Notes: generated from the letters alone by a model not told the origin. DNA of 64,000 nucleotides from Dehalococcoidia bacterium (GCA_963663945.1 OY760687.1:2639918-2703917), one strand, 5' to 3'; shown: positions 2,184-19,465, counted from the first letter of the stretch. Program-made: numbers and translations.

Positions 2184-3032
2184 TCAGCCGGCCTCTATCC
2201 AGATCCGGCAGTGGTCGCTGGGACCCCACCCCTCCACCTCATTCAGCGCCTTCACCCGAACCCTTTCGTGAAACCCGCGCGAGACAAACACGTGGTCAAT
2301 CTGCACCCGGGCTCCATCCGGCGTGTTCGTCGGCTTGTGGTAGTAGGTCGGCACATCCAGAGAGTCCTCCGTCAGGTGCGTCGGTATGGGATCGGCGCGC
2401 CGGCCATCGGGATACTGCGGTCCCATGTAATCCAAGCCTAGGGCTTGCATCCGATCTAGGATGGTCTGGGCCCGGTGATTAAACTGGTCCGAACTCTGTA
2501 ACGACACATTCAGGTCTCCAGCCGCCAGTATCCGGTGACCAGCCGGGCAGTCATAATACCCGATAAATGCGGACAGATCCGAGATGATGCGGTGGGCCGA
2601 TGCGTCAGGGTAAATCCAATCCCCTTCGGCAGTGGGGTGTGGGCTGAGCCAGCGGGCGTACATTGAGACGGCAATGAAGGACTCACCTCCTACCACTGGA
2701 GTGACCCGGGCGACGTCCATGGTGCCTATTCCGCTCACCGCCATCTCGTGCGTCCGCTCCGGAGCCACCCAAGTCGGCCCGATCTGCCGGAACCATTCCA
2801 CGTTTACCCGGTCGGAGAGCTTCACCACCATAGGCCACCGATCGTAGTTCGGCACACCTGTGGTGGGGTCGCGCCCGAGCCACGATTCGTAGGGGCTGAG
2901 TTCTACCCGGCTTGCCACATCGTCGGGAACCGTGCCCACCTCCTGCAATAGGGCGATGTCAGCCCCCATATCCACCAGATCCCGCCACGGTTGGTGCATG
3001 GTGGCGATGTTCCAGCTCACCACATTGATCAT
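2184..3032 (-). CDS. Endonuclease/exonuclease/phosphatase (EEP) family protein
   Basis: Intact SWNIA, LQE, AGDLN, QIDHVF and PSDH motifs; RBS AGGGAG precedes the ATG at 3032. Confidence 0.9.
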   Translation of the reverse strand: MINVVSWNIATMHQPWRDLVDMGADIALLQEVGTVPDDVASRVELSPYESWLGRDPTTGVPNYDRWPMVVKLSDRVNVEWFRQIGPTWVAPERTHEMAVSGIGTMDVARVTPVVGGESFIAVSMYARWLSPHPTAEGDWIYPDASAHRIISDLSAFIGYYDCPAGHRILAAGDLNVSLQSSDQFNHRAQTILDRMQALGLDYMGPQYPDGRRADPIPTHLTEDSLDVPTYYHKPTNTPDGARVQIDHVFVSRGFHERVRVKALNEVEGWGPSDHCRIWIEAG

Positions 3033-3272
3033 GAAACACTCCCTATCGTCGTTCAATTCGACCGTTTGCTACCAGACCCTCATCTGCATCGTGTCAGCGG
3101 GGTCTCTCCACTCTGTCAGATCCACAAGTCGTTCCTCGCTGGGCGATGTGCCTCGTTCAACATATGGGAATTGCCCCGGCTCCGTAGCGAGTTCCGAGAA
3201 CAGCGTTGGTCAGGGCGCCATTGGTGTCTGTGTCGCCGCCCGAACTCACCAATACCATCTTGTTGCCAGCCG

Positions 3273-3575
3273 TCAGGACTGAGCCTGCGATGATTGACCC
3301 CCATTCCCGGGGCTCTCCCTCGCCTCGTAACGACCGACGATACTCGTCACATGAGGGTAGAGTGGCAGACGCTCTTTGACGTCCCACCAGCGGAAGGACT
3401 CCAGCTCCCGGCCATTGATCCTGGGATCGCCGGCGAAGACCGGCGCCCCCTTGTGGTCGTTGAAACTCCCCTCGTTCGTGTAATTGAAGAGCCGTTCGGC
3501 ACGGTAGGCTTTCATCCCCAACTCTTCGTCCAACTCGCAGCAGGCAGACGTCAACGCCGCCTCACCCAGTTCCAT
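3273..3575 (-). pseudogene. N-terminally truncated NUDIX hydrolase; its ATG lies inside a CRISPR repeat
   Basis: MELGEAALTSACCELDEELG is the second half of a Nudix box (GX5EX7REUXEEXG, with RE degenerate); the usual N-terminal strands are absent. Confidence 0.65.
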
Positions 3576-3657
3576 CCCCGCGCGTGCGGGGGAACCGGGT
3601 CAACACCGGAACCGCCTCAACCGAAGTGCGGTCTGTCCCCGCGCGTGCGGGGGAACC
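3568..3657 (-). CRISPR. Orphan type I-E-like mini-array (repeat-spacer-repeat)
   Basis: Plus-strand repeats AGTTCCATCCCCGCGCGTGCGGGGGAACC (3568-3596) and CGGTCTGTCCCCGCGCGTGCGGGGGAACC (3629-3657), 29 nt each. The 32-nt spacer is GGGTCAACACCGGAACCGCCTCAACCGAAGTG. The 61-nt period and CCCCGC..GCGGGG hairpin are typical of I-E. No cas genes in the window. Confidence 0.85.
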
Positions 3658-3866
3658 CTTCTATGTTCCTATGATGCTGCGGTCTGTTGGTTGTGGTTCG
3701 TAAAAACTTGCGCCGCGGCCCTTGCCGCCGGCGGCAAATGCGCTCTTCAAGTATGCAAACCGAAGACGGCAGGCCCATGGCCTGGTCTCTCCAGCGAACC
3801 GCAGTGTCGGTTCGGTACCGGCCTTGTCATGGGCGGCTTAGCCTAGCCGCAGGCAGTGGGCGGCTG

Positions 3867-4052
3867 CTAGGTTCGATGGTGCATTCGGGGGTTCGCCTTT
3901 CGGAGTATTTGTTGTGGGTATATACACATCACTACTGACATGACTGACAGGTACGATGTGTTACCGGGAAGTACAGCGCAGTGTGCCTTTGCGAACCTAG
4001 CGTGCCCGCGCCACGGGCGTTACATTTGTGCGATAGCGCTGGGAGTTTGATA
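3867..4052 (+). promoter_or_regulatory. Conserved non-coding element type 1, copy A (134-nt core closed by CTAGGTTCG/CGAACCTAG)
   Basis: Colinear homology to 7634-7821. First 19 nt are identical; ACACATCACT, AACCTAGCG, GGGCGTTACATT and TTGATA blocks are shared. Lies upstream of a sensor kinase. Confidence 0.7.
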
Positions 4053-4119
4053 ATCTTTCCCGACGGGTCGGCGCCTGGCCCGGGCCGGCGCGCGAACCCC
4101 CAACCTTGATCATCGAATT

Positions 4120-5355
4120 TTGCGGCGTCCCAAATTGAGCCATTACCAGCGATTGCAACGGTTCGTCTGGGTCGAACCCGACGTGGTGCGCCCGGCGGTG
4201 CGGGTCACGGTCTGGGGACGCTGGTTCCTCCTGCTCATTGGCGTGGCTCACCTCGCGTACCCTCTGGAGTTTTCCTACCCCCATGACTTGGAGCACGCGG
4301 TTCTGCATGTTCCGGTAGCCGCGCTGAACGGCCTGGTCCACCACCGGTTGCTCACCAACCGGACGGTCAACTGGGGCTGGGCGCTGGGGTTAAGCGCCAT
4401 GGACTTCGCCTTCACCACGTCCCATATCCTGATCCACCAGGGCGGATTTGATAACTACACCTTCCTCTACTTGTATCCCGCCCTGGGCGCTTTCGTGGTC
4501 ATCTTTTCCTCGTTCTCCCTCGTTCTGGCGTGGACCACGACCGTCGCGGTCGCCTACGCCCTGGTGTGCCTGCTGGTGGGGCCCGGCCTGGACATGGCCT
4601 CCGGCGACGTGAAGGAGCTGGGAGCCAGGCTGGCGACGATGTATCTCATGACCGTTGCCGTCAGCCTCATCGTCCGGTTTGAGCGCGCCCAGCGGCAGGC
4701 GGCGATGGAGGGGGAGCGACGGATGCAGCAGGAACGCATCGATCTGTCGCAGTCCATCCACGACACCGTGGCCCAGACCGCCTACATGATCGGCCTGGGG
4801 ATTGACGGCGCCATCAGTCTGGCCGGGGATTCGAACCCCAGGTTGGTCGAGCGCCTGGCCGCGACGTCAGAGCTGTCGAAATCGGCAATGTGGGAACTCA
4901 GGCGACCCATCGACATGGGCCGGCTATTCGAGGGGCAGCAGCTCGGACCGGTGTTGCGGTCCCACGCCGCGACCTTCTCGGCCATCACCTCGGTTCCAAC
5001 CGAGATGGCTCAGTCTGGGGTGGAGCCGCCCCTGGCGCCAGAGGCGCAGGCCGCTCTCTTCGCCATCGCCCACAACGCCCTGACCAACGCCTTTCTCCAC
5101 GCACAAGCGAAACGGGTTGAGGTCAGGCTCGACTTCGGGGCCGACGCCGTGCGCCTGTCCGTCTCCGACGACGGGGTGGGACTGCCCAGCGACTACGCCG
5201 AGCGGGGTCGCGGTTTCGCCGGTATGGAGAGGGACGCCCGGGGGCTGGGCGGCAGACTCATCGTGGAGACGGGCGAGCCGGATGTCGGGACCACCGTCAC
5301 CTGCGTGGCTCCCTACGCGACAGTTCGAACAGGAGACGATGATGGCAGCGACTGA
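4120..5355 (+). CDS. Membrane sensor histidine kinase, NarX/DesK-like (HisKA_3 + HATPase_c)
   Basis: About 6 hydrophobic segments, H-box SQSIHDTVAQ, N-box IAHNALTNAFLH, G-box SDDGVG. Start codon uncertain. Confidence 0.9.
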   Translation: MRRPKLSHYQRLQRFVWVEPDVVRPAVRVTVWGRWFLLLIGVAHLAYPLEFSYPHDLEHAVLHVPVAALNGLVHHRLLTNRTVNWGWALGLSAMDFAFTTSHILIHQGGFDNYTFLYLYPALGAFVVIFSSFSLVLAWTTTVAVAYALVCLLVGPGLDMASGDVKELGARLATMYLMTVAVSLIVRFERAQRQAAMEGERRMQQERIDLSQSIHDTVAQTAYMIGLGIDGAISLAGDSNPRLVERLAATSELSKSAMWELRRPIDMGRLFEGQQLGPVLRSHAATFSAITSVPTEMAQSGVEPPLAPEAQAALFAIAHNALTNAFLHAQAKRVEVRLDFGADAVRLSVSDDGVGLPSDYAERGRGFAGMERDARGLGGRLIVETGEPDVGTTVTCVAPYATVRTGDDDGSD

Positions 5356-5992
5356 TGTGATCCGGGTATTGGTGGTGGACGATCATCCCGTCACTAGGCG
5401 GGGGTTGCGCGACACCCTGGCGGACGTGGAAGGCTTCGAGGTTGCGGGACAGGCGGCGGATGGGGTTGAGGCCGTTACCGTGGCGCAGGAAACGCGGCCC
5501 GACGTCATCGTCATGGACCTGTTCATGCCCCACAAGGACGGAGTGGAAGCCTGCCGGGAGATCACGGAGCTGCTGCCCGACACCAGGGTGCTGATGCTCA
5601 CCGCCTCTGCAGCGGAAGACGACGTGATCCGGGCCGTGGCCGCCGGCGCCACGGGGTTCGTTCAGAAGTTCACGGGAAGCGATGAGTTGATCCACGCGGT
5701 GCGGCAGGTGGCGGCGGGCAATCTGATGATCCCGGGAGACGCGGTGAGACGGGCGTTCCGGCTGTTGGACGAGGGCGCGGCGAAACACGCTGCGGATTTG
5801 CTGTCGGCAAGGGAGCGGGAGGTGCTGACCCGGTTCGCGACGGGAAAGGCGTATGCGGAGATAGCCGGAGACATGGGCATCAGCAAGGTGACGGTGCGCA
5901 ACGCCATCTACCGGGTTCAGAACAAGCTCGGGCTTGAGTCCCCGCAGGAGATCGTGGTGTGGGCGGTCCGCAACGGTCTGCTGGAGGAGTAA
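5339..5992 (+). CDS. NarL/FixJ-family response regulator (REC + LuxR HTH)
   Basis: VLVVDDHP, VIVMD, FVQK, LSAREREVL...KVTVRNAIYRVQNKLG; overlaps the kinase stop; RBS AGGAG. Confidence 0.92.
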   Translation: MMAATDVIRVLVVDDHPVTRRGLRDTLADVEGFEVAGQAADGVEAVTVAQETRPDVIVMDLFMPHKDGVEACREITELLPDTRVLMLTASAAEDDVIRAVAAGATGFVQKFTGSDELIHAVRQVAAGNLMIPGDAVRRAFRLLDEGAAKHAADLLSAREREVLTRFATGKAYAEIAGDMGISKVTVRNAIYRVQNKLGLESPQEIVVWAVRNGLLEE

Positions 5993-6032
5993 CGGATTCG
6001 GCACGGCTGGCAGTGGCTCGGATCGACGATTG

Positions 6033-6314
6033 ATGAGTGAGCATGCAGGAGGCGGCGAACCTGCCTTGTTGTTGCTACCGCGATGTTCGGCATCGACGCG
6101 ATTCTTTGCGGTGGCGTCGCTCGTGGTGTCAAAGGTGTGTCTATTGACAGCCTGCTGGGGTGAGGCGCCGTCAGGAAACTCCGGTCCCGGTGGAGAAGCC
6201 CCGCCTCGCGTCACTGCCGAGGCGGCAGACGAGCAGCCAGATACGCTTGACGCACCGCATAGCCGAGCGCGCGAGATCCTCGCCGCAGGCTTTCGGCCAT
6301 TGCCGAAGGCCTGA
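6033..6314 (+). CDS. Possible small or decayed lipoprotein
   Basis: Hydrophobic stretch ending in LLTAC followed by a G/E/P-rich linker; short and may be a remnant. Confidence 0.3.
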   Translation: MSEHAGGGEPALLLLPRCSASTRFFAVASLVVSKVCLLTACWGEAPSGNSGPGGEAPPRVTAEAADEQPDTLDAPHSRAREILAAGFRPLPKA

Positions 6315-6414
6315 CATTGATCAAGGACGAGGCGGTTCAGTGGCCGGGTGCGTCGATGGGTTGCCCCCAGGAAGGGATGGAGTAGGTTCGGTTGCTTCCC
6401 CGTGGGCGTGTCTA

Positions 6415-7634
6415 GTACTCAGCCAACGTTGGAAAAGCAGGAGTAGAAGCGTTGGAGTTTGGTTCTGGCGTCCTCGGTTCCGAAGCGCCAGTAAATGGGG
6501 ATGCGTGCGGCGTTGCGTCGGGTCTCGTAGGCGGTGATGGCACGTTGCAGGGCGCCAGCGTCAGGGTTTCTCCCTTTGAGACAGGCGCGGCTCAACACAC
6601 TCAACTCAATCTCCGCCATTTTCAGACAGTCGGCGTGCTTGGGGTGTGGTGATACTCGAGACGTTTCACGATGCGTCGGGCTTCGGCCGCAGGGAAGGTC
6701 TCATACAGCGGGGCCATGCGGTGGGTGTTCAGGTTGTCCAGGACCACGGGGATGACGGTGGCGTCGGGGTTGGCCACGTCTGTGAGCCACCGCATCTGGA
6801 GGGCGAAGTCCGCCATGGTGCGCCGCTGGGTGATGGCGATGTGGCTCCAACCAGCCAGTGGTTCTCAGAACAGGAAGAGGTTGCGGTTGCCACCGCGTCG
6901 GTACTCGTAATCCTGACGTCGGGGTCGTGCCGGCTGGGCCGGCAAAGGTTCCCGCACATCGCCCAATAGTTGCGTAGAGGTCTCGTCGAAGCACACCACC
7001 GGCCGGCCGGGGTCGTAGGGCTCGGCATACAGGTCCAGCACGTCCTCCATGGCCGCCACAAACTCCCCGTTCATCTGGGAGATGCACCACCCTCGCTTTT
7101 GACAGGGTTTGAGGACGTTTTTTGAGCCGGAGCCGGACCGTCTCGTGGGACAGGCTCTCCACCACGCCCAACTCCACTACCTGGTCGGCCAGCAACCGCA
7201 GGGTCCAGTGGTCGCGTCCGTCGGGCGCGTCGCTGCACGCCAGGGCAATCAGGCTGGCTTCGCCCCGATCATCCAGCTTGCCATACCGGTTGGCCTGGGG
7301 ATGGTCATCTAGCACACCGTCCAATCCCTCATCGGCGTACCGCCGCTTGGTGCGGAACACCGTGCGTTGCGACGTGTCCAGGGCCGCCGCCAGCTGCGAA
7401 CCGCTCCAGCCCTCATCGGTCTTGACCAGGATACGCGCCCGATTGATTACCCGAGCCGAGTGCTGTCCCCGACGGATCGACCCCTCCAGTTGGCCCCGAT
7501 CTTACTCCGACAACCGTACCGCAAACTTCTCCTGAGCCATGGTTGCCCCACCTCCCGCACCGTTGGTTCCCACTCACGGCAACCACCATGGCCGGTTTCT
7601 TCTTCCATATGCCTGTACAAATTTGACTGAATAC
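6415..7634 (-). mobile_element. IS630-family insertion sequence (decayed)
   Basis: 25-nt terminal inverted repeats GTACTCAGCCAACGTTGGAAAAGCA (6415-6439) and the reverse complement of 7610-7634 (18/25 identical). TA duplicated at 6413-6414 and 7635-7636 within a CTAG target. Confidence 0.9.
6419..7540 (-). pseudogene. IS630 transposase pseudogene
   Basis: MAQEKFAVRLSE* (stop at codon 13). HTH part runs to LRLKK with an AAAAAAC -1 frameshift motif. DDE part: CFDE...LFLF* (internal stop), VLDNLNTH, a further frameshift, then MAEIELSVL. Confidence 0.88.
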
Positions 7635-7821
7635 TAGGTTCGATGGTGCATTTGGCGGGTTCACTTTTTGCATACTTGCTGAACGTAAACACACATCACT
7701 TCGTACTTGATGGACACGTATGGATTGCTACCAGAAAGTAAAACCCAATGTGGTTGCCGAAACCTAGCGCCGCCCGCGACATGGGCGTTACATTCGATGC
7801 GATCGCGCTGGAAGATTGATA
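7634..7821 (+). promoter_or_regulatory. Conserved non-coding element type 1, copy B
   Basis: CTAGGTTCGATGGTGCATT at 7634 and AACCTAG ending 7767 give the same 134-nt span as copy A. Lies upstream of the hybrid kinase. Confidence 0.7.
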
Positions 7822-7879
7822 TTCATGCCGGGAATGTATTTCCCAGAGAATAGCCCCACTCGAGCCTCCTTTATCAGCC

Positions 7880-10276
7880 ATGAGCCAGTCTGAGTCCGAC
7901 CTGCTGAAACAAGAGAACGAGGTGCTGCGTGAACGTCTGGCGCGTTTGAGCGAGGCCAGCCTGCGCATCAACGAGCCTCTGGAGTTCGACGCCGTTCTAC
8001 AGGGAGTTCTGGACGCCGCCAGATCGTTGACCGATGCCTGTTACGGGGTAATGACGTTCCACGACGATGATGGAGAGCTTTCGAACTCCCTGTCGTCGGG
8101 GATGACCGCGGAGGAGGCGAGCGCGGTCTGGCAAATTCTGACGGCGCCCGGGATCTACGAGCGACTGGGCGGGATCGCGGGTCCGGTGCGACATCCCGAC
8201 ATGCTGGGACTGCTGAGCGAGATGGGTGTTCCCGGAATGCGCCTGCCCCTGCCGTCGGGGACAGTCTTCTCCTTCCTGGCGTCGCCATTGCTGCATCGAA
8301 ACCAGCGCCTGGGCAATATCTACCTGGCCGCAAAGCTGAGCCGCCCGGAGTTCACTCGGGAAGACGAGGAGAGCCTGGTGATGTTCACGTCTCAGGCGTC
8401 TCTGGTAATCGCCAACGCCAGGCGCTACCGGGACGAGCAGCGGGTGCGGGGCGACCTGGAGACACTGGTGGACACCGCGCCGGTGGGCGTGGTGGTATTG
8501 GACGCCAGGACGGGGACGCCGGTGTCCTTGAACCGGGAAGCCTCCCGAATCATCGGCCGCCTTCGCAGCTCTGACCAGTCAGTTGCGGAGCTTGCGGAGG
8601 TGATGACCTGGATACGCGCTGACGGTCAGGAGGTCTCGCTCAGGGATTTTCCCATTGCGGATCGACCTAAGGTAGGTGAGACGGTCCGTGCTGAGGAGAT
8701 CATGCTCCAGGTTCCCGACGGCCGCCGGATTACGGTACTGATCAGCGCTACGCCCATGCACTCGGCGGCCGGGGAGGTGGAGTCGATGGTGGTGACCCTC
8801 CAGGACATGACGCCGCTGGAGGAGATGGAGCGGCTGCGAGCGGATTTCCTGGGTATAGTGAGCCACGAATTGCGCACCCCTCTAGCGACCATCAAGGGTT
8901 CCACCACCACATTGCTCAGCGGCGCGTCGGACCTTGATCCCGCCGTGATGGCCCAGTTTCACCGCATCATGGACCAACAGGTTGACCACATGCAGGACCT
9001 GATCGGTGATCTCCTGGACGTGGCCCGCATAGAAGCGGGGGCGTTGTCAGTTGACCCGGCGCCGGTGGACCTGGCGGAGATAGTGGAAGAGGCGCGCAGC
9101 AGGTTCCTAGGGGCCGAGGGAAGCGAACGGCTGAGCATAAAGTTGGATCCGGAACTGCCGCTGGTGATGGCGGACCGCCGGCGCATTGTGCAAGTGCTGG
9201 GCAACCTGTTGACTAACGCGGTGCGGCACTCGCCGGATGGCTCGCCCGTCCGAGTTTCCGCCATACGGGATGTTTTCCACGTGGCGGTTTCAGTCTCCGA
9301 TCAGGGCCGCGGCATCCCTGCCGACATGTTGCCGCTCCTGTTTCGCAAGTTCTCCCAGGTTGACGGCGCAACACGGGACGGGGGTGTCAGCGGATCCGGC
9401 CTGGGCCTGGCGATCTGCAAAGGGATTGTGGAAGCTCACGGGGGCCGCATTTGGGCCGACAGTGAGGGTCGGGGACTCGGAGCGCGGTTCACATTCACCA
9501 TTCCGTCAGCGCAGGGCGCAGAGGATAGCGCGGCGACGGCTCTCGCGGCCCCGGTGCGAGCGCGTGGGCTATCGCGGGACAAGCTGCGGGTTCTGGCGGT
9601 GGACGACGACCCTCAGGCGCTCCGCTACGTTCGCGACGCCATCTCCAAGGCGGGATACGCCCCCGTCGTCACTGGAGACCCCGAAGACGTGCCGCGTCTC
9701 ATGGAGGAGGAGGAGCCGCACCTGGTACTCCTGGACCTCATGCTCCCCGGCAGCGATGGCATCGAGTTGATGACCGGCATCCTCAGGACTGCGGACGTGC
9801 CGGTGATCTTCGTGTCGGTGTACGGCCAGGAGGACGTGGTGGCCCGGGCTTTTGACATGGGGGCATCCGATTACGTGGTCAAGCCCTTCTCACCTACGGA
9901 GCTGGCGGCCAGGATCAGGGCGGCCCTGCGCCGGAGAGCCGGGCCCGATGTAGCTGAGCCTTCCGGCCCCTACGAATTGGGGGACTTGACCATCGATTAC
10001 GCCGGACGCCGAGTGTGGTTGACAGGGAGCCCGGTGGCACTGACGCCCACCGAGTACAGGTTGCTCTACGAGCTTTCGATCCACGCCGGCCGGGTGATGA
10101 CCCACGACCATCTGCTGCAACGGATCTGGGGTCCGGAGAGGATGGGCGAACCGTGGCTGGTCCGGGAGGTGGTGAAGCGGCTGCGAGGCAAGCTGGGTGA
10201 TGTCGCCGCCGACCCGAAGTATATCCTAACCGAGCCCCGGGTCGGCTATCGCATGCCCGCGGGAGACGCGGGATGA
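7880..10276 (+). CDS. Soluble hybrid kinase/regulator: GAF-PAS-HisKA-HATPase_c-REC-OmpR-type winged helix
   Basis: GAF (INEPLEFDAVLQGVLDAARSLT...GNIYL), PAS (VGVVVLDA), H-box SHELRTPL, NLLTNAV, GSGLGLAI, REC (LAVDDD, LVLLD, YVVKPF), C-terminal YILTEPRVGYRM. Confidence 0.92.
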   Translation: MSQSESDLLKQENEVLRERLARLSEASLRINEPLEFDAVLQGVLDAARSLTDACYGVMTFHDDDGELSNSLSSGMTAEEASAVWQILTAPGIYERLGGIAGPVRHPDMLGLLSEMGVPGMRLPLPSGTVFSFLASPLLHRNQRLGNIYLAAKLSRPEFTREDEESLVMFTSQASLVIANARRYRDEQRVRGDLETLVDTAPVGVVVLDARTGTPVSLNREASRIIGRLRSSDQSVAELAEVMTWIRADGQEVSLRDFPIADRPKVGETVRAEEIMLQVPDGRRITVLISATPMHSAAGEVESMVVTLQDMTPLEEMERLRADFLGIVSHELRTPLATIKGSTTTLLSGASDLDPAVMAQFHRIMDQQVDHMQDLIGDLLDVARIEAGALSVDPAPVDLAEIVEEARSRFLGAEGSERLSIKLDPELPLVMADRRRIVQVLGNLLTNAVRHSPDGSPVRVSAIRDVFHVAVSVSDQGRGIPADMLPLLFRKFSQVDGATRDGGVSGSGLGLAICKGIVEAHGGRIWADSEGRGLGARFTFTIPSAQGAEDSAATALAAPVRARGLSRDKLRVLAVDDDPQALRYVRDAISKAGYAPVVTGDPEDVPRLMEEEEPHLVLLDLMLPGSDGIELMTGILRTADVPVIFVSVYGQEDVVARAFDMGASDYVVKPFSPTELAARIRAALRRRAGPDVAEPSGPYELGDLTIDYAGRRVWLTGSPVALTPTEYRLLYELSIHAGRVMTHDHLLQRIWGPERMGEPWLVREVVKRLRGKLGDVAADPKYILTEPRVGYRMPAGDAG

Positions 10277-10390
10277 AAAAGCACGGGGTGACCATGCCGG
10301 ACAGTGAATTGGACTTCGGCATCGGCCCAGATCGCCGCACGGAATGAGGGACACAACACCCGCGCGCCGGGGTTGAGGCTGTGACGTCCC

Positions 10391-11800
10391 TCAATGATCC
10401 AGGGAGAGGCGAATAGTTGCGGTGGCGCCCTGACCAAGCCCGTCGCTGTCCACGGTGATTGTGCCCCCATGGGCTTCCACTATGGTTCTGGTGATGGCGA
10501 GTCCCAGGCCGCTTCCGTTTATCCCACGATTGCGGGACTGGTCGGTCCGGTAGAACCGTTCGAAAACGTGAGGCAGATCGGCGGAGTCGATGCCGATCCC
10601 GTCATCGGCGACCGAGATGACCAGGGCTTCGTCGCCGTCCCGCTCCGCGTGGATCGCAACCTTCCCCCCGGCCTCGGTGCAACGAAGGGCGTTGCTGATA
10701 ATGTTGCCAAGCGCCTGGTTCATCCGCATACGGTCCATGGTAAGGCGAGGGAGTTCACCGGTTACCTGGAGCGATAGTTCAATCTGCCCGGCCAGCGATT
10801 GCGGCTGCCAGCGGGCCACCTCCTCGGTGAGTAACTCGTGGACAGAAATGGTTTCGAGGGCGAGCCTCAACTCACCGTGGTCAGTCTCGGCAAGCCAGTT
10901 CAGGTCGGTAACGAGACCCCGCAGCCGGTCCACCTCCTGGATGATGTGGTCGGAGGCGTCGTCCGGCGTCTGCAGGCCGTCACGCAGTCCTCTGGCCTCC
11001 AGCTGTATCACGCTCAGGGGCGTGTTCAGCTCGTGGGCGACGTCGTTGATCAATCGGCGGCGGAGCTCACGCTGGGTCTCCAGTGCGGCGGTCATCCGGT
11101 TGAAGGCCTCGCTCATCGTGCCCAACTCGTCCGAGGACGTAACCGGAAGGGTGGCAGATTCCCCCTGGGCAATTGCCTGGGAGGCTTCCGTCAGCGCCGT
11201 CACGGGCGCGGTGATGCGTTTGGACAGCCAGACGGCTAGCACAATGGCGACACCGACCGTCAGCGCGCCACCGGTCAGGGTGATGAACAGGAGCGCGTTC
11301 AGGAACCCGTGGGACTCGGTGGACAGGAACTCGCGGTTCACGTCCACGTAGACGTGGCCCACTACCCGATTGGATGCCAGATGGAGCACATCCTCGCGGT
11401 GCCCGCCCAGAGGCGGCGGATCGGATCCGGGCGACAGCTGGGACAGATTGTCCTTCACCACGAGGCCGTCGGCCCCAATTACGACCACCCGCACCTGGTC
11501 GTGTTGACCGCCCTCGGAGTGTTCTCCTTCTGATTCCTCCGACCGTTCCCCCCGTGGAATACTGCCGGAGAGGTACCCCGCCTCCGACAACGTCATGTCC
11601 AACGTCGCCCAGCCGCCGGAATCCGTGTACTCTCTGCTCAGGTTACGGGCCAGCTGGGTCGCCCGGTCTCCGCCCACCTCTTCCACGAACACCCCCAGGC
11701 GGGTCTGCGTCGCGTAGTAGCCCACGCCCACGCTGGTCAATACCGTCAGCAGGACGACGAATACGATCGCCGCCATGATCCGCCAGCGCAGCGACATCAC
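10391..11800 (-). CDS. HAMP-domain sensor histidine kinase (BaeS-like)
   Basis: Two TM helices, HAMP (SSDELGTMSEAFNRM), H-box AHELNTPL, GSGLGLAI; His/Glu-rich extracytoplasmic segment ERSEESEGEHSEGGQHD. Confidence 0.92.
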   Translation of the reverse strand: MMSLRWRIMAAIVFVVLLTVLTSVGVGYYATQTRLGVFVEEVGGDRATQLARNLSREYTDSGGWATLDMTLSEAGYLSGSIPRGERSEESEGEHSEGGQHDQVRVVVIGADGLVVKDNLSQLSPGSDPPPLGGHREDVLHLASNRVVGHVYVDVNREFLSTESHGFLNALLFITLTGGALTVGVAIVLAVWLSKRITAPVTALTEASQAIAQGESATLPVTSSDELGTMSEAFNRMTAALETQRELRRRLINDVAHELNTPLSVIQLEARGLRDGLQTPDDASDHIIQEVDRLRGLVTDLNWLAETDHGELRLALETISVHELLTEEVARWQPQSLAGQIELSLQVTGELPRLTMDRMRMNQALGNIISNALRCTEAGGKVAIHAERDGDEALVISVADDGIGIDSADLPHVFERFYRTDQSRNRGINGSGLGLAITRTIVEAHGGTITVDSDGLGQGATATIRLSLDH

Positions 11801-12474
11801 TCATCCTCCACCACGAGCCTGTAGCCAGCGCCGTAAACGGTCTGGATGGGCTGTCTACCGCCCCGGTTGATCTGGCGACGCAGGCGCGCCACCTGGTTGT
11901 CGATGGCGCGGTCGAAACCTTCGAACTCGTCGTTGAAGGTGAGCGAGATCAGCTGGTCGCGGGTGAGCACCTGGTTGGGGTGGCGCATGAAGGTTGCCAG
12001 CAGTGCAATCTGCGCCTGGCTCAGGGGCACGGGTTCTTCATCGACCGTCACCGTACGGGTGGTCTCGTCCAGCGTGATGTTGCCGCAGGTCAGGACCTGC
12101 TGGACCTTGCCCTTGACGCGGCGCAGCACGGCGTGGGCGCGAGCGATGACCTCGTCCGGGTCGAAGGGCTTGACGATGTAATCGTCGGCTCCGCTGTCCA
12201 GCCCGCTGATGCGCTCGGTGTGGGCTTCCCTGGCGGTCAGCATGATGATGGGAACATCCGACTCCCGCCGCAGGATCCGGCACAACTCCACGCCGTCGAG
12301 GCGGGGCAGCATCAGGTCCAGGATCATCAGGTCAGGTTCCAACTCCCGAGCCAGGTTTAGGCCGGTTTCGCCGTCGTGGGCGACCTCGGCTGAAAACCCG
12401 GCGCGCTCAAAGTAAACCTTGACCCAGTTGGCGATCCGGGCGTCGTCCTCGACTATCAGTACGGTGCCATTCAT
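11797..12474 (-). CDS. OmpR-family response regulator
   Basis: VLIVEDD, LMILD, YIVKPF, IQTVYGAGYRL; RBS GGAGGA before the ATG at 12474; overlaps the kinase start. Confidence 0.93.
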   Translation of the reverse strand: MNGTVLIVEDDARIANWVKVYFERAGFSAEVAHDGETGLNLARELEPDLMILDLMLPRLDGVELCRILRRESDVPIIMLTAREAHTERISGLDSGADDYIVKPFDPDEVIARAHAVLRRVKGKVQQVLTCGNITLDETTRTVTVDEEPVPLSQAQIALLATFMRHPNQVLTRDQLISLTFNDEFEGFDRAIDNQVARLRRQINRGGRQPIQTVYGAGYRLVVEDE

Positions 12475-12613
12475 CAGCAATCCTCCGAATGAGGCTTGGC
12501 AGGGGACGCGGCATCTCCTGGGAGACACCGCGTCAAAGGTCTGGTTACATCCTGGGTGGTTTATCTTACTGTGCGACGCAAGACGAAATCTCCCATGGAA
12601 GTTTCCGGTGGTT

Positions 12614-14050
12614 CTACCCGCCGCCCCGCCTCTCGCCGCCCGAGCCGTGCTCACCGCTGGAACCATGCTCGCCACCGGACTGGCTGTTGCCGCCGGCCTC
12701 GCCGCCGCCCACCTCGGCGTGTGCCACCCATCCGATGAACGACGCCTGGGTGGCGGGCAGGTGGATCCCAATAACCTCTCCCGGAGCCAGGTCCACCGGA
12801 GTGGTGGGCCCAAGCTCGGTGCCATTGGAGAGATGCACCTCGATCCTGACCCGGTTCAAGTTGTTGCCGGTGGTGTTCTCGACGGTGCCGATGAACGCGT
12901 TACTGGGAGCGTCGTAGTTCAGGACCAACCGGGCTCCGCCCCGGACGGCGTCGAAGGTATCATCCAAGGCCAGTTGCGCCCCACTGCCTTCCTCGCCGCC
13001 CGATGCGCTGCTCTCACTGCCGGAGCCTTCGCCGCCGGGACCGTGCCCCTCGCCGCCGGCCCCCTCGCTACCGCCACCTTCGGAACCCTGTCCGCCAGCG
13101 TGGGGAACCGGGCCGGGGCCGCCGCAATCGAACACTTCCATGTGGACCACGTACCCGTCGAAGGCGACGCCAGCCAGGTTAGTTTCGCTGGAGACCGAGA
13201 TGCTGGACGTAGCCCGCTGTCCCGAGTTCAGGTCGCCCAACTGGTCGGGTCCGAGTTCTCCCACAGTCTGGCTTCCGGACTTCAGGTGAGGTTCGGCCTG
13301 AACGTAGCACAGGGTCTGGGACGTCGTGTTCTGCACCGTCGAGTGGACGGTCTGGGTGGCCGCATCGTAGCTGGCGGATATCGCCAGTCCACCGAGGACG
13401 CCGTTCCAGGTTTGGTCGAGGGGAGTGATGGGGCTGGACATGGCGGCTTCCATGGCTGCCTCGTTGCCGCCGCCGCTCTCCGGACCCTCGGGGCCGTCCG
13501 GGCCGCTTTCGCCGCCGGCCTGGCCGCCCTCGGCTCCGCTGCCCACCTCGGCGTGGGCGATCCAACCGGTGAAGGACGCCGACGTCGACGGCAAGTTCAC
13601 AGAGGCTGCCTCGCCTGGGGCCAGGTTTATCGGCGTGGTCGGCCCAAGCTCAGTGCCGTTGGACAGGTGAACCTCGATCCTGACCTGCCCCAGGGCGTTG
13701 CTGGTGGTGTTCTCCACCGTGCCCTGGAACGCGTTGCTGGCCGCGTCGTAGTTCAGAACCAACCGGGCTCCGCCCCGCACCGCGTCAAAGGTCGCATCGG
13801 GAGCCAGGGTGGCGCCGCTGCCCTCTTCGCTGCCGGAGCCGCCGCTTTCGCCGGCGCTTTCTCCGCCGGCGCCGTGTTCGCCGGGACTTTCACCTTGCGA
13901 GATCTCCTGCGTCGCGTTGGCCCCGCCGGAGTCGTGGCCTTCACCGATACCGGTGTCGTTGCCGCATCCCACCAGGACCGCCGCAGAGAGCATGACGGCC
14001 AGGACCGAGCCGAGCAGGAACGTCCTCGTCATCAACTTCTTGATCTTCAT
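12614..14050 (-). CDS. Lipoprotein with three homologous ~95-aa domains and Gly/Glu/His-rich linkers
   Basis: MKIKK + hydrophobic core + lipobox LVGC; RBS GAGGAGG. Domains 1 and 3 are near-identical (TFDAVRGGARLVLNYDA...EVHLSNGTELGPTTP...AHAEVG); domain 2 is diverged. Confidence 0.85.
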   Translation of the reverse strand: MKIKKLMTRTFLLGSVLAVMLSAAVLVGCGNDTGIGEGHDSGGANATQEISQGESPGEHGAGGESAGESGGSGSEEGSGATLAPDATFDAVRGGARLVLNYDAASNAFQGTVENTTSNALGQVRIEVHLSNGTELGPTTPINLAPGEAASVNLPSTSASFTGWIAHAEVGSGAEGGQAGGESGPDGPEGPESGGGNEAAMEAAMSSPITPLDQTWNGVLGGLAISASYDAATQTVHSTVQNTTSQTLCYVQAEPHLKSGSQTVGELGPDQLGDLNSGQRATSSISVSSETNLAGVAFDGYVVHMEVFDCGGPGPVPHAGGQGSEGGGSEGAGGEGHGPGGEGSGSESSASGGEEGSGAQLALDDTFDAVRGGARLVLNYDAPSNAFIGTVENTTGNNLNRVRIEVHLSNGTELGPTTPVDLAPGEVIGIHLPATQASFIGWVAHAEVGGGEAGGNSQSGGEHGSSGEHGSGGERRGGG

Positions 14051-14278
14051 CTTTTCGCCTCCTCGTGTGGGTAACCCACTCTTGATACCAACCAAGTTAG
14101 AGGCGAAATGTCGCAGAATTATGTCGTTGGCAGGCCCGGCTCACTGAAGGGAGACCCAGCAGGTGCCACAGTGAGCAGGAGATTCGTCCTTGTGGTGCCG
14201 GGGGTATGAATCGGCGTGCTTTCTTCGCAAATGACGGCCCAGATATCGCCGATCCAAGGCTCGTATCGCCCGGCGACA

Positions 14279-15778
14279 TCACCTGCGCAGCAAGGTTCCA
14301 ACGCAATGAACCTGCCTCTTTTGTGGGCAAGCAACGTATCGCGGTAGGGAGTCTAAACGAGACGGGTCTGGTCGGCGGCGACGTTGCCTCACGACCTTTC
14401 CGCGGGCCTGACAGACTTCCGGATTCGGAAACCACTCGAACACGGTGTCCGCTCTGCCCGGGACGCCCAGGTTTTGGATGCGGCGATCCTCAGAACGGAA
14501 TGTTTCAGGGCTGCTGAATGGACGTTCAGCGCTGATGCGGACCAGATACTCAGCGAAAGCGTCCTGTTCCGAGCCCGGGTCGGCAAAATCGACGGCTCCG
14601 GGATCTACCGCCTGCGGGCCATCTATGATCCCGTTACCGTTGGTGTCCGGGAAATCAGAGTTGGGAGCATTGAACTGTCCCCGTTCTCCCACCAGGTCCA
14701 CGCGCCCGGGCGTCGGCACAGGGAACGGGTAGCCGTCGCCGCCGTTGGCCAGGAAATTCAGAGTCACCATTTTGATTACACGGTCGGAGTCTCCCATCAG
14801 GACACCATCGACCACCACTCGGTCGACGATTGTACCGTCCTCCCCGATCACCGCCAGCGAGCGGATGCGCTGGCCGATTGGCGCTTCGGGATTGAAGCTG
14901 AAACGCACTCCGCCAACCTGCGGAAAGCGCCCTTCCTGTACCTCGCCCACTCCCTCGCATCCAACGCCGTGCTCCATGACAGAGACCAGCTGTGTCGCAG
15001 TTAGCGGAACTATGACCAGCCCGTTGTTGAAGCGCAGAGATCCCTCTATATCGAACTGGGAGATATCACCCGCGACCTTGCCAGTTGAAGGGTTGGCGGC
15101 TGAAGGGAGATATTGCACCCGCGAGGGATCCGTGGAACCCGGGGGCTGCACCACCAGGCCTATGTCATCACGTATGCCTCCGCCGTTCTTGAGCGATACC
15201 TGGACCTCCGGGTCGACCTGCCGGGCCAACCACAGGTTGGCATCGGTGATGAGGCTGCCGAGGTTGCTCTCCTCGGTTCGCACGGCGTTGCGGCGTCCGT
15301 CGAGGTACACGGCAGCGCGCCCCAGGATATTGCCGTCCCGGACGGAGATCACGTCTCGAAGAGCATGGGCGACGCGTGTCACCTCCGCTATGGGGGCGCC
15401 GGAGAATGCCTGGGCGCCCTGCGTATCGGTGGCGTAGGCTCCGCTGAAGTAGGGGTCAACCGATGCGGGGATGATGCGACCGGAGGCGTCGAAGTCCACC
15501 ACCAGCCTACCCAGGTACTTGTAGTCGCCGTCGGTATTCACCAGCAGCACCGGGACGCCACCAGGACTTTGGTAGATGAGAGGATAGGTGTCAGCGGAGG
15601 TATGGCCGGGCCGGAGTCGGTCGTTTTCGTCAGCTAACAGGGTATTGGAGCCGCCCCCGATGATGACATCCACGTTCTCCAGCCGTAACGCCAATGCCTG
15701 CTCGATGTCAAATCCTCCTTGCCAGCATATGCAGGTGTCGACGCGGGTCCACCAAGCCGCGCGGGACGGGCAAGCCAA
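14279..15778 (-). pseudogene. 5'-nucleotidase/metallophosphatase family fragment lacking its N-terminal part
   Basis: VDVIIGGGSNT, YLGRLVVDFD, RTEESNLGSLITDA, KNGGGIR, FPQVGG, NFLANGGDGYPF. The N-terminal metal-binding motifs are missing and the start is not credible. Confidence 0.75.
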
Positions 15779-15814
15779 AAGAAGAGGCGCTACGGCTAGT
15801 CTTGCCGTAGCGCC
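15777..15814 (-). terminator. Rho-independent terminator
   Basis: 11-bp stem GGCGCTACGGC/GCCGTAGCGCC followed on the minus strand by TCTTCTTTT, downstream of 15970-16212. Confidence 0.6.
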
Positions 15815-15969
15815 CAGATAAACTTGGTTATTTCTGGAAATTACACGGATGCCGATCCCATCGAGGGAGAAACTCGTCGGCCTGATAGGCTGGACCTGTG
15901 GCCATCAGGAACTATACCATCCGTCAGGAACGCTACCAGCCGCCCTTTGTCGACGCTGCCAGTGCCGAT

Positions 15970-16212
15970 TCACCGAGCCAGCGTCTCGCCCAACGGCGTG
16001 ATCTGGAAAGTACCGCCCTCACCCACAATCCACCCGTCCCGTTCCATATCGTGGAGTTCCCTAGCCACGGCCTGCTGTTCGTACCATTGATAGGTCACCC
16101 TCAGTGTGCCAACTTCCAGGACCCGTTGGTCATCGCGGTTGACGATCACGCCGCGTCGGTCACAGCCAGGTTCCATCGCCTTCTTGAGCAGCCACATCGC
16201 CCGCACGTCCAA
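15970..16212 (-). CDS. Small hypothetical protein, possibly winged-helix-like C-terminus
   Basis: 80 aa ending ARELHDMERDGWIVGEGGTFQITPLGETLAR, reminiscent of wHTH wings; followed by a terminator. Confidence 0.5.
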   Translation of the reverse strand: MDVRAMWLLKKAMEPGCDRRGVIVNRDDQRVLEVGTLRVTYQWYEQQAVARELHDMERDGWIVGEGGTFQITPLGETLAR

Positions 16213-16638
16213 GGTCTCTACCCCCCCACATTTACATCAGATCGAACGGCGGCATACCGCACCACCGGGCGGGAACCTTCGCAACTCCCAACGCTGAGGG
16301 AGCTGGTGTCCGAACGTTTGCGACCATCGAGGCAATTCTTCAGTGATTCCCAACACCCAAACGTGTGTGCGGGATGCCCTCGACTTGCGTAGTCCCCAGG
16401 CAACACCAGCCGACGGCGTACCGTGTTGCAAATGATTATTGGCGCATACTAAATCCATCGAATTCGTGACCAGTTAGCAACCCGTCTGGCGTTTGGTCCC
16501 GCCCTGCGGTTGCGGTGGGTAATGGAGCCAAAAGCCTGGAATCAAGCGTTGACCAGCTCCATTGGAGCAGCAGCAACCGACGCAATAGCCCGCTTTCTTG
16601 TTCAATTCGCCAACACGATGCTGCGGTGTCATCATACG

Positions 16639-17007
16639 TCAGTGCACGCCTGGTAGGGGTGAACCCGGAGGAGTCCGAAAAAACGGTATTAACGCTGTAT
16701 AACCCGTGCCGCCGCAGGACGGGCAGCGGAAAGCTTCACCGTCAGTGGCGAAAAACCAGCCGACAGTCGCCTCGTGGCAGTGGGGACACCGACCTTTCCA
16801 ACGAGAATATCCATCAGGCAGGTGTCTTACGCGAGCGAGGATCAGCGGACGGGCAGTATCCTGCTGCCAACCATGCGCTTTGGGTTCTGCAGGCACCGAC
16901 CTACGGCAACCTACACATGGGTCGTCAGGTTCACATTCCGCAGTATCCACCGGATTGCCGCAATGAGGACATGGAAAACGCCACACGGGAACGGGTAGAT
17001 CAGTCAT
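16639..17007 (-). CDS. Double zinc-ribbon protein (four CxxC motifs)
   Basis: RBS GGGGAG then MTDLPVPVWRFPCPHC...CVGC...CPHC...CPSC; 122 aa. Confidence 0.65.
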   Translation of the reverse strand: MTDLPVPVWRFPCPHCGNPVDTAECEPDDPCVGCRRSVPAEPKAHGWQQDTARPLILARVRHLPDGYSRWKGRCPHCHEATVGWFFATDGEAFRCPSCGGTGYTALIPFFRTPPGSPLPGVH

Positions 17008-17262
17008 GTGCCGCTCCCCCTTTTGGGGGTCCTCATCCTGCGTTGCGGACCCCCGAGGGCCATGTGTCGGAATCTGCGACTTCGCTTCGGCACCAGGTTC
17101 GCCGCGCCTTGCAGCGGCGTGCTCAACCCGCCGTCGCATCGACAAACGTCTCGCAGCATCCAGACCCAACGGAAGCCGTTGACCGCCCATCTTCGAAATG
17201 CCACTTCGTCTCCGCCCGCCGGAACAACCGAGCCCGAACCCATGCAATATACGTGAGATGCT

Positions 17263-17311
17263 ACAACAAATCGCATATGACCCAGATGTTTTCGTATCGT
17301 TTTGTCATATG
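17263..17311 (+). promoter_or_regulatory. Conserved non-coding element type 2, copy A
   Basis: ACAACAAATCGCA...ACCCAGATGTTTTCGTATCG resembles 37805-37849; also carries the inverted repeat CATATGAC...GTCATATG. Confidence 0.45.
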
Positions 17312-17387
17312 AAAATTTGTACAATCCAGCGCGCCGACAGCCCAGTGGCGTCCATCCACAGATAGCGGTGGGATCAAGGGGACGAGC

Positions 17388-18356
17388 ATAGTCCAGCCAG
17401 ATCAACGGGATCGTGAGATCGAAGCGCTCGAGGAACGCCTGTCGCGGCTGAGACAAGCGAACCCGAGCATCAATGAGAGCCTGGACTTCGACGCGGCGAT
17501 GGAGGGAGCTCTGGACTCTGCCCGTTTCCTCACGCGTGCGCGATACGGCGTGATGACCCTAATTGATGACGAGGGCCAGGTGCGGGACTTCCTGTCCTCG
17601 GAGATGACCGGCGAGGAAACGGAACAGGTGTGGATGATCCCGCAGAGATGACAGCTTTTCGAGTACCGGGGTTGTATCTCCGGGCCGCTGCGGATCCCAG
17701 ACCTGATGGATCAGGCCATATCAATGGGCCTTGCCGAATTCCGGCCGGCCCTGCCGGTCGGGCAGGCGGTCCCGTTTCTGGCGTCGCAGGTGTTCCACCG
17801 GGGTCAGCGGGTGGGCAACATTTTTCTGGCCGACAAGGACGGCGGCGAAGAGTTCACCCGGGCCGACGAAGAAAGTCTGGTGATGTTCGCATCCCCGGCG
17901 GCGCTGGTCATTGCCAACGCCCGCACGTACCGGGACGGTCAGCAGCCCCGAAACGATCTGGAGACCCTGGTGAACACCTCCCCAGTCGGCGTTGCCGCGT
18001 TCGACGCCCGGGCGGGGGCGCCGGCATCGTTGAACCGGGAGGCGATGCGCATCGTGGAGAGCCTGCGGGAACCTGAACAGTCGCATCAGGAACTGCTGGG
18101 GGCGGTGACCTGTGCGCGCGCCAATCGGCGCGCACTCTCGCTCTTGAATTTTCCCATGCCCGAGCTGTTGAGCGCCGGAGCAACCGTCCGATCCGAGGAG
18201 ATAGTCCTGCGCGTTCCCGACGGTCGGAGCGTGAACGTCCTCCTCAACGCAACCGCCATCCATTATAAAACCAGCGTGCCGGTTGGATTTATCGATAACC
18301 CCGCCCCACTCGAACGGGGACGCCGCTGCCAGTACTCATCACCGGCGTCGCGGTAA
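17388..18356 (+). pseudogene. Degraded, truncated paralog of the GAF-PAS hybrid kinase
   Basis: ATA in place of the start codon after RBS AAGGGGA. ERLSRLRQANPSINESLDFDA...RYGVMT, in-frame TGA near 17649, then GAF/PAS up to VLLNATAIH. Kinase, REC and wHTH domains are absent. Confidence 0.85.
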
Positions 18357-19288
18357 CCGATTTTGAAACGCTGGATCATCGCCCCCAAACCCTTTGCGGA
18401 AGTTGAAACGGGTACCTAACCAAACCCGGCACGTCTTGACGGTTTGCTGATGGACCAATCCATTCGCGGTCCAGTTGAACTCCGGGACCCCTCCCGATTA
18501 GACGGACGATAGGTCACCCCCGCCCGCTGGTCATGGAGTTCTACAGATGCGCTTCAGGTCACGGCCGTGGCGGGCCAGGTGATTTTCGGTCGGACGGTCA
18601 AGTTGCACAGTAACGCCGGAGCGGACACGGCGTCGTTACGCCGTGCGCGACCATTACGCTGGCGCCGGTTGGACCGCCCGGGTCGGCACCGAAATTGCAC
18701 AAAATTTGTGCTCGGATAAGACGGCCGGGGATCCTGGAAGAGAATCCCTGTCGGCACTCTGCGCCACGCCAGTTGCTAAAAAACTGTGGCTGCGCCGGGC
18801 ATTTGTAGCCAAACGCAACAGCCGGCACAGAACCATGCCCGTAAGACACAGCACCATGGGCCATGGTGGCCTCGGCGATGCCCTCTAACGACGGTCTGAC
18901 AAGGTGAACGTAGTCTGGAAATTCAACAACACCGGCCTGACCGTCGCCACGCTGTTCGAAACCGGGTAGAGACCCACCAGTGATGAATTCTCAGATGGCT
19001 CGGAAGGGATCACTCGCCGGCAGACTGCGCTGTGGGATTGGAAGCTTGGTCAGCCGAACCGACGACGAGGCCATCCCCAGAGTGGGGGCAGCGGCACTGG
19101 GCATTCGACGGCGCCGTGGTTCACGACAACCGCACGCTGGAGCCTCCACCGCGACCATCGGCTGACGGCTCAGCGTCCGGCGGACTCAAACCAATTCCGT
19201 CGTTCTCCATTGCTGCCATTTCATAGACGATTAACAACCGCACCGCGTGATCTGTGGATTTTTTGGTTTGCGGAGGCGGCTGGCAGTG

Positions 19289-19465
19289 TCACGACTCCTC
19301 ATGTATAGACCGTTCAACCAGCGCACGCTGGTTTTTGCTATTGGGCGCCGTTTCACCACGTTCCCACCGCCTCAAAGTACGTTCATCGATCTCGAGGCTA
19401 TGCGCGAATCGCTTTTGGCTAGTTTTCCCCGATTTCCGCACGTGCTTGATGCGCTCGCCTCTCAC
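19289..19465 (-). CDS. Small XRE/Cro-C1 helix-turn-helix protein
   Basis: RGERIKHVRKSGKTSQKRFAHSLEIDERTLRRWERGETAP; GTG start overlaps the recombinase stop (GTGA). Confidence 0.75.
   Translation of the reverse strand: MRGERIKHVRKSGKTSQKRFAHSLEIDERTLRRWERGETAPNSKNQRALVERSIHEES

Follow-up and report, generated by a model that had tools for sequence, protein, structure and literature searches.

Two segments of a 64,000-nucleotide (nt) stretch of DNA from a Dehalococcoidia bacterium (GCA_963663945.1 OY760687.1:2639918-2703917; the window in what follows), each in front of a sensor kinase gene, belong to a small family of homologous intergenic regions. With slightly better than even confidence, we predict these to be lineage-specific bidirectional promoter/operator DNA serving pairs of adhesin and two-component genes, which has spread through segmental duplication and, in one case, promoter replacement. 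The segments, 3867-4000 (copy A) and 7634-7767 (copy B), are 134 nt long each, open with the identical 19-mer CTAGGTTCGATGGTGCATT, and are 69% identical over this 134-nt core and 80% over the 55 nt that follow it, where colinear blocks (GGGCGTTACATT, TGCGAT.GCGCTGG and TTGATA) continue for approximately 55 nt 3′ of both cores. At the right end of copy A, CGAACCTAG repeats the first 9 nt in inverted form without a mismatch; copy B closes with GAAACCTAG, of which 7 contiguous bases are complementary to its start. An earlier note on this DNA had described the two segments, their common start, complementary ends and colinear blocks, and its description was confirmed by our analysis, as were its assignment of the downstream genes (a HisKA_3 kinase for A and a HisKA hybrid kinase for B, by Pfam) and its view that duplication of a kinase gene does not explain a non-coding module repeated before two unrelated kinase genes. 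A search of the 3.94-Mb genome with copy A recovered copy B far beyond chance expectation (E=1.9e-26) and two further matches (E=2e-42 and 6e-25), namely copies C (703,554-703,748) and D (712,824-712,981), both on the minus strand of the genome, for a total of four copies. The parts of the two copies in the window are the following:

3840-4058, plus strand: copy A, whole unit, from the AGCCTAGCC motif (-27) to the TTGATAATC block; covariance model score 158.6 bits
3867-4000, plus strand: copy A core, 134 nt, with arms CTAGGTTCG (3867-3875) and CGAACCTAG (3992-4000)
3840-3848, plus strand: third CTAG motif, AGCCTAGCC, 17 nt from the left arm and inverted relative to it
4001-4058, plus strand: copy A tail, with the GC palindrome GCCCG-N5-CGGGC (4004-4018) and the invariant GGCGTTACA (4016-4024)
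4026-4031 and 4049-4054: promoter-like hexamers of the copy A tail, -35-like TTGTGC and -10-like GATAAT, with a 17-nt spacer (our own scan)
7634-7826, plus strand: copy B, with core 7634-7767, tail 7768-7826 and -10-like GATATT at 7818-7823; covariance model score 155.2 bits

The unit of homology is not the 134-nt element bounded by inverted repeats that the earlier note had proposed. In the independent copies B (intact in the related genome G023) and D, homology with A starts at 3839/3840, at a distance of 28 nt from the first CTAG on its left side, and does not stop at the right arm but reaches 4024 (+27) for D and about 4055 (+55 or more) for B. Copies A and C share 2.4 kb as part of a segmental duplication (3664-6029), and the 5′ end of a divergent adhesin gene on the left is also common to C, D, E (the copy in genome G061) and the B copy of genome G004 (B_G004; other copies are labeled likewise). 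Since the left and right limits vary between copies, there are no common termini, and the inverted-repeat core forms just the central part of a longer stretch. In A, C, A_G004 and E the terminal arms pair without a mismatch (9-10 nt), and in the other copies they match at 6-8 of 9 positions, with mismatches in A_G023 (6/9), D, the B copy of this genome, B_G004 and G016a. The AGCCTAGCC motif is kept in A, C, D, A_G023, B_G023 and E; the left flank of copy B, with its -27 motif, was lost through the insertion of an IS630-family element (see below). Three CTAG motifs (-27, 0 and +125) are retained within 160 nt of the unit despite an approximately 9-fold genome-wide depletion of this tetranucleotide (1,446 observed vs 13,379 expected from base composition). 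The core of copy A has 50% G+C as against 63% for the genome. A 24-codon frame on its minus strand is open in A and C and stopped early in B and D, which rules out a conserved small open reading frame in the core.

For the search for further copies that the earlier note had suggested, we built a sequence-only covariance model from nine copies and used it across the genus and the order. It recovered 12 copies in 5 of the 54 genomes of the genus (four in this genome, two in G023, two in G004, one in G061 and three in G016, the last being diverged and two of them truncated) and no copy in 250 other genomes of the order, representing 117 other genera; this distribution marks the family as young and narrow. 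A pattern scan of genome contigs returned the same three genomes as already known and no more, and a metagenome scan with the pattern AGGTTCGAT-N{105,130}-ACCYAGCG, which is too loose, gave 120 loci, all of them chance and none matching the model. The three diverged G016 copies keep the blocks AGGTTC, GGTGTAT, ATCACT, GTAC and GGTA of the left 100 nt. A search of more distant kinase paralogues, at 53-59% amino-acid identity, gave no match to the model even with filters off. Some 190 nt ahead of their start codons a related block, CTAG..CGATTGGTAACAT, is retained, and on this basis the left-arm region is evidently an old feature of the control region of this kinase family.

All copies are intergenic and lie in an adhesin/kinase context, of which the window holds the following genes and flank:

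3664-3866, minus strand: copy A left flank, homologous to the 5′ region of the copy C adhesin gene (sliding identity and left-flank alignment)
4120 or 4135 to 5355, plus strand: HisKA_3 membrane kinase downstream of copy A (HisKA_3/HATPase_c, Pfam)
5342-5992, plus strand: NarL/LuxR-type response regulator (REC-GerE, Pfam) following the copy A kinase
7880-10276, plus strand: hybrid kinase-regulator of 798 amino acids downstream of copy B (GAF-PAS-HisKA-HATPase-REC-Trans_reg_C, Pfam)

On the right side and the same strand, a HisKA_3 plus NarL operon is found at five copies, including a paralogous operon downstream of copy C, and the hybrid kinase at three. On the left, a divergent adhesin-like gene is found at C, D, A_G004, E and G016c, and 0.9 kb off in B_G004; these genes code for large fn3/cadherin/ChitinaseA_N/LRR/RTX/Ig-repeat proteins. 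Usually the adhesin gene and the HisKA_3/NarL operon diverge from the unit; D and G016c are placed between tandem adhesin genes without a kinase. Since these two are flanked by adhesin genes only, the most constant neighbor of the unit is the divergent adhesin gene and not the kinase, a point that the earlier note had missed. In A, B, C and E, 113-135 nt separate the right arm from the kinase start codon, and in C, D, A_G004 and E, 170-260 nt separate the left arm from the divergent adhesin start, such that orientation and distance to the flanking start codons are fixed, as is expected of a duplicated promoter/operator region. The left flank of copy A adjoins a two-repeat mini-array of clustered regularly interspaced short palindromic repeats (CRISPR) in place of the adhesin start codon.

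Around copy B, where the unit replaced a native promoter, the window holds two further features:

7827-7879, plus strand: leader of the hybrid kinase, arrived with copy B, with the hairpin GGGAATGTATTTCCC at 7830-7844
6415-7634, minus strand: IS630-family insertion sequence (IS) with a frameshifted transposase (HTH_32 and weak DDE_3 matches) and ends GTACTCAGCCAA and TTGACTGAATAC

Orthologues of the hybrid kinase with 67-82% amino-acid identity in five congeners (G045, G043, G019, G060 and G017) have another, quite dissimilar upstream sequence in common, which includes a GGAGG ribosome-binding site, and they become homologous to the three genomes with copy B (this genome, G023 and G004) only from about codon 6 onward. 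As the upstream DNA of the five is unrelated up to that point, copy B replaced a native promoter region: to judge from these alignments, the unit, the leader and the first five or so codons together took the place of the native control region in the common ancestor of the three copy-B genomes. The hybrid kinase has at least 10 paralogues in this genome (e.g., at genome positions 3,185,300 and 826,703) and up to 14 in congeners. The native upstream regions of these paralogues show TGTAAA-N4-TGTATAAT-like direct repeats, which suggest that the family may be self-regulated through its own DNA-binding domain. The hairpin GGGAATGTATTTCCC is located just past the -10-like GATATT and reads TGGAAATGTACTTTCCA in G004, with one G-C changed to A-U (read from the alignment); it could be a 5′-terminal stem of the mRNA. 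A TA dinucleotide borders the IS630-family element on either side (6413-6414 and 7635-7636), and the second of these belongs to the CTAG with which copy B begins; the element sits between two CTAG sites and is not part of the unit. At the orthologous locus of G023 the IS is absent and 264 nt are extra, including the copy B -27 motif, which suggests that an IS-associated deletion removed these 264 nt at the copy B junction.

Copies A and C lie within an old duplication (3664-6029) that is 70-90% identical in its non-coding part; its coding part (4150-5990 vs genome 701,551-703,962) contains 100%-identical tracts of up to approximately 700 nt. Long identical coding tracts inside a 70-90% duplication are a mark of gene conversion, which appears to be ongoing in the coding region of the two operons. 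As related observations, identity at four-fold sites between this genome and G004 is 87% for the HisKA_3 kinase (4135-5355) and 66% for the hybrid kinase (7880-10276), and the core of A_G004 is nearer to copy C than to copy A. The adhesin/kinase cassette is much younger than the genome background, through either exchange between lineages or conversion.

The deepest clean comparison for measuring constraint is that of the B orthologues of this genome or G023 with that of G004, in which identity is 66% at four-fold sites, 58% in the left flank, 76-77% in the core, 90-93% in the tail and 73-76% in the leader. With the tail and the core both above the four-fold sites, these values point to purifying selection that is strong on the tail and moderate on the core. 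Column conservation in the best-conserved left part has its strongest period at 10 nt (block-permutation p ~0.03), which would fit protein contacts along one face of the DNA. Among the options raised in the earlier note, a DNA module or portable promoter is the one that best fits the replacement of a native upstream region by copy B and the strong constraint on the 58-nt tail.

Accommodating these features, we envisage a basic arrangement in which the region would fill the approximately 500-nt gap between the gene of a large secreted fn3/cadherin-type adhesin and a divergent HisKA_3/NarL-type operon and would act at the DNA level. The 58-nt tail is the candidate kinase-side promoter/operator, with its GC palindrome and a -10-like GATAAT or GATATT (TTGTGC-17-GATAAT in A and GATATT in B being the putative promoter elements), and the A+T-rich 134-nt core with the three CTAG-centered motifs (-27, 0 and +125) would form an upstream protein-binding region. 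The predicted ligand is a transcription factor, for which the adjacent NarL-type regulator is our best guess as the most plausible candidate, and its binding would place the adhesin gene and the two-component operon under joint control. The unit would have spread via segmental duplication and illegitimate recombination, with copies A and C arising together with the kinase operon and D with the adhesin gene only; at copy B, the unit, leader and some five codons replaced the native promoter region of the hybrid kinase gene, which would wire that gene into the same control.

The spread of paralogous promoter/operator regions by segmental duplication, including promoter replacement with regulatory rewiring, is a general and well-known process. 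The unit resembles other such regions in being non-coding, in its fixed place and orientation before start codons amid variable flanking gene sequence, in the substitution of the native promoter of an unrelated gene by one copy, and in having its strongest constraint near the putative promoter. It differs from them in its unusual length (about 200 nt conserved), in its 9-nt inverted repeat with arms 116 nt apart plus a third motif, and in being restricted to few species within a single SAR202 genus. If correct, our reading makes it a small and clean case of regulatory evolution in an uncultured, sponge-type lineage of Chloroflexota (SAR202), in which a copied adhesin/two-component control region took over from the original promoter, probably a self-regulated one, of a hybrid kinase, thereby linking this kinase to adhesin control. 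The three CTAG motifs and the 58-nt tail would then be a concrete DNA target in testing what the HisKA_3/NarL systems beside giant adhesin genes regulate; neither a new class of RNA nor a new class of mobile element is opened by it.

Several observations weigh against the promoter/operator reading. The 10-nt periodicity is only marginally significant. A scan with a promoter tool found none, and no promoter is conserved in all copies: in a looser scan, copy A alone had TTGTGC-17-GATAAT and a few other copies had weaker forms of it, A_G023 no longer has an intact -10-like hexamer, and the promoter elements are not conserved in E. No further convincing sites for the sequence CGAACCTAGC were found upstream of other genes of the genome, and hence no regulon signal. 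The A-type core is also less conserved (70-80%) than the four-fold sites of the neighboring gene (87%); we ascribe the difference to gene conversion in the coding sequence, but weak constraint on the core would fit too. Sigma-70, extracytoplasmic function (ECF) and sigma-54 promoter readings of the tail and the arms were tried by eye and set aside, as none suits all copies.

One competing explanation is a role for the core as RNA, either in a small RNA or in a long leader, which would belong to the kinase operons if on the plus strand and to the adhesin genes if on the minus strand; it would act through its sequence or local hairpins and not through a large conserved fold. The earlier note did not recognize the unit as a known riboswitch; Rfam cmscan of 3000-9000 on both strands at E<=1 gave 0 matches, and ARAGORN reported neither a tRNA nor a transfer-messenger RNA. 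The note's proposal of a new structured cis-regulatory RNA was tested on the alignment of the 12 copies, in which 69.5% of cells are paired vs 68.9% in shuffles (122 of 500 shuffles being as high), and the covariation score is 0.115 vs 0.109 for controls and not above them, with the 12 related copies giving limited power. The terminal helix has no two-sided change, and the changes in its arms break pairs and are never compensated. The inner stem ACACATC/GATGTGT that had been noted is 7/7 in copy A and not kept in any of the other 11 copies, and an alternative inner palindrome, CACTTCGTAC/GTATGAAGTG, is only partly kept. As for the noted G-U pairing of GGTGCATT with AGTGTGCC (GGTGYATT/ARTGTGNN across copies), it is indeed possible in 87% of cells, and several one-sided changes keep a G-U on the plus strand only, but this is no more than conserved columns give. 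Folding of single sequences yielded z-scores of about -1 to -2 on both strands, and the RNAalifold consensus energy for 170 columns amounts to -12.5 (plus) or -15.7 (minus) kcal/mol; for the left 100 nt, the best-conserved part, it is close to zero on both strands (about -0.5 kcal/mol). The sequence blocks are therefore conserved and the pairing is not, and a new structured RNA, for which an Rfam match, covariation above controls and a conserved fold are all lacking, is not supported. Riboswitches and the structured 5′ leaders in Rfam likewise stand upstream of regulatory genes and recur before unrelated ones; the unit differs from them on those three counts and also in that one arm of its terminal "stem" would fall outside any transcript from the candidate promoters. 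An RNA role of the looser kind can further draw on a GC hairpin past the right arm with one two-sided change, on TGGTGTATT(T), which resembles a TG-extended -10 and is common to the distant paralogues about 190 nt before the start, which would make the core a leader, and on a terminator-like hairpin with a T-run (minus strand, 3702-3737) between the core and the adhesin start position, kept, however, only in A and C. Given the tests above, we consider such a role unlikely. The converse view, that only the tail is functional as promoter/operator and that the core with its inverted repeat is a passenger of the segmental duplications, conserved only through the youth of the copies, would account for the gap between the tail (90-93%) and the core (only 76%) relative to 66% at neutral sites, for an A-type core no better conserved than neighboring non-coding DNA, and for the decay of the inverted repeat in A_G023, D, B_G004 and G016a. 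We regard it as quite unlikely, as in the deepest B comparison the core still exceeds four-fold sites by approximately 10 points and the left flank by 18, the strongly diverged G016 copies keep the left-100-nt blocks, copy D retains the core and not the tail, and three CTAGs persist in a CTAG-depleted genome.

The position of the unit between adhesin and kinase genes also calls to mind phase variation. The fimS element of Escherichia coli is an invertible promoter switch. More generally, invertible switches are inverted-repeat-flanked sequences with regulatory information that are flipped by a serine or tyrosine recombinase, as at cwpV, flgB and cmrRST of Clostridioides difficile (PMC6837544). 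Like these, the unit has a short segment flanked by inverted repeats directly upstream of genes for adhesins or surface proteins and of signal-transduction operons, in several homologous copies per genome that have the same arms, perfect in A, C, A_G004 and E; a site-specific recombinase flipping the 134 nt between the 9-nt arms would thereby switch expression of either the adhesin gene or the kinase operon. Unlike them, it has one orientation in every assembly, namely in 10 of 10 copies with both flanks and in an independent Logan assembly of copy B (the contig with the hybrid kinase being identical to the copy B locus in sequence and orientation, and uninformative), with the limit that assemblies show the majority state only. 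The arms are moreover only 9 nt and in half the copies imperfect, homology extends beyond them, no promoter was found inside the core by the tool scan or our own, and no tyrosine or serine recombinase gene is located within 20 kb of the four copies, the 10 Phage_integrase and four Resolvase matches of the genome all being farther away, such that any invertase would be a distant, global one. We deem such an inverton very improbable. A switch in the wider sense, in which the 134-nt segment sets adhesin vs kinase expression either as a multi-locus inverton or through face-to-face promoters with transcripts overlapping across the core, is distinctly improbable; its face-to-face form, which reads each arm as a -10-like TAGGTT, is contradicted by the right arm of copy D, TGGGTT. 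Finally, the earlier note had raised a miniature inverted-repeat transposable element (MITE) in a CTAG target, which would here be a relic of the IS630/Tc1-mariner type, inserted at the TA of CTAG and later carried along by duplications. The size of approximately 130 nt, the CTAG...CTAG ends with TA as a possible target duplication, the choice by the resident IS630-family element itself of the CTAG that opens copy B, and the related left block of the distant kinase paralogues, which lack a detectable core and would permit an insertion, are all compatible with it. Correia elements of Neisseria and IS630-derived MITEs are small, non-autonomous, TA-targeting elements with regulatory side effects; their terminal repeats measure about 20-30 nt, they are dispersed in tens to hundreds of copies, and they show sharp ends, a TA duplication at these ends and empty sites. 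The unit is akin to these in its length (about 100-150 nt), terminal inverted repeat, TA/CTAG ends and place just upstream of genes, as in promoter supply; long terminal repeats, many copies, sharp ends and empty sites were not found for it. Its terminal repeat, of 6-9 nt only, does not resemble the ends of the resident IS630 (GTAYTCAGYCAA), independent copies are homologous beyond both ends (-28 on the left, +27 to +55 on the right), the 12 copies in 5 of 54 genomes occupy a single kind of context, and the locus without the unit has a wholly different conserved upstream sequence in place of an empty site. For want of sharp ends, dispersed copies and an empty site, we reject a MITE as extremely improbable.

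Some further observations concern the surroundings of copies A and D. The CRISPR mini-array beside copy A is of an orphan I-E type on the minus strand (3568-3657), with repeats at 3568-3596 and 3629-3657 and a spacer at 3597-3628. It occupies the expected position of the adhesin start, and its would-be leader is 3664-3866. The unit is not a CRISPR leader, given that only copy A adjoins the mini-array, whose repeat has no other array in the genome. Between the copy A core and the mini-array lies the terminator-like minus-strand feature, comprising a GC-rich hairpin (3711-3737) followed by the T-run (A on the plus strand, 3702-3706); it is kept in C, weak in D and absent elsewhere. The locus of copy D (genome ~707,700-717,900; positions 9675-19924 of locus L013) contains three tandem adhesin-like genes, coding for proteins of 586 (LRR/RTX), 875 (PKD/ChitinaseA_N/RTX) and 1589 (fn3/cadherin/LRR/RTX) amino acids, with D before the last of them, and a Mu-type transposase (rve, Mu-transpos_C_2) is found nearby at L013 7296-8798.

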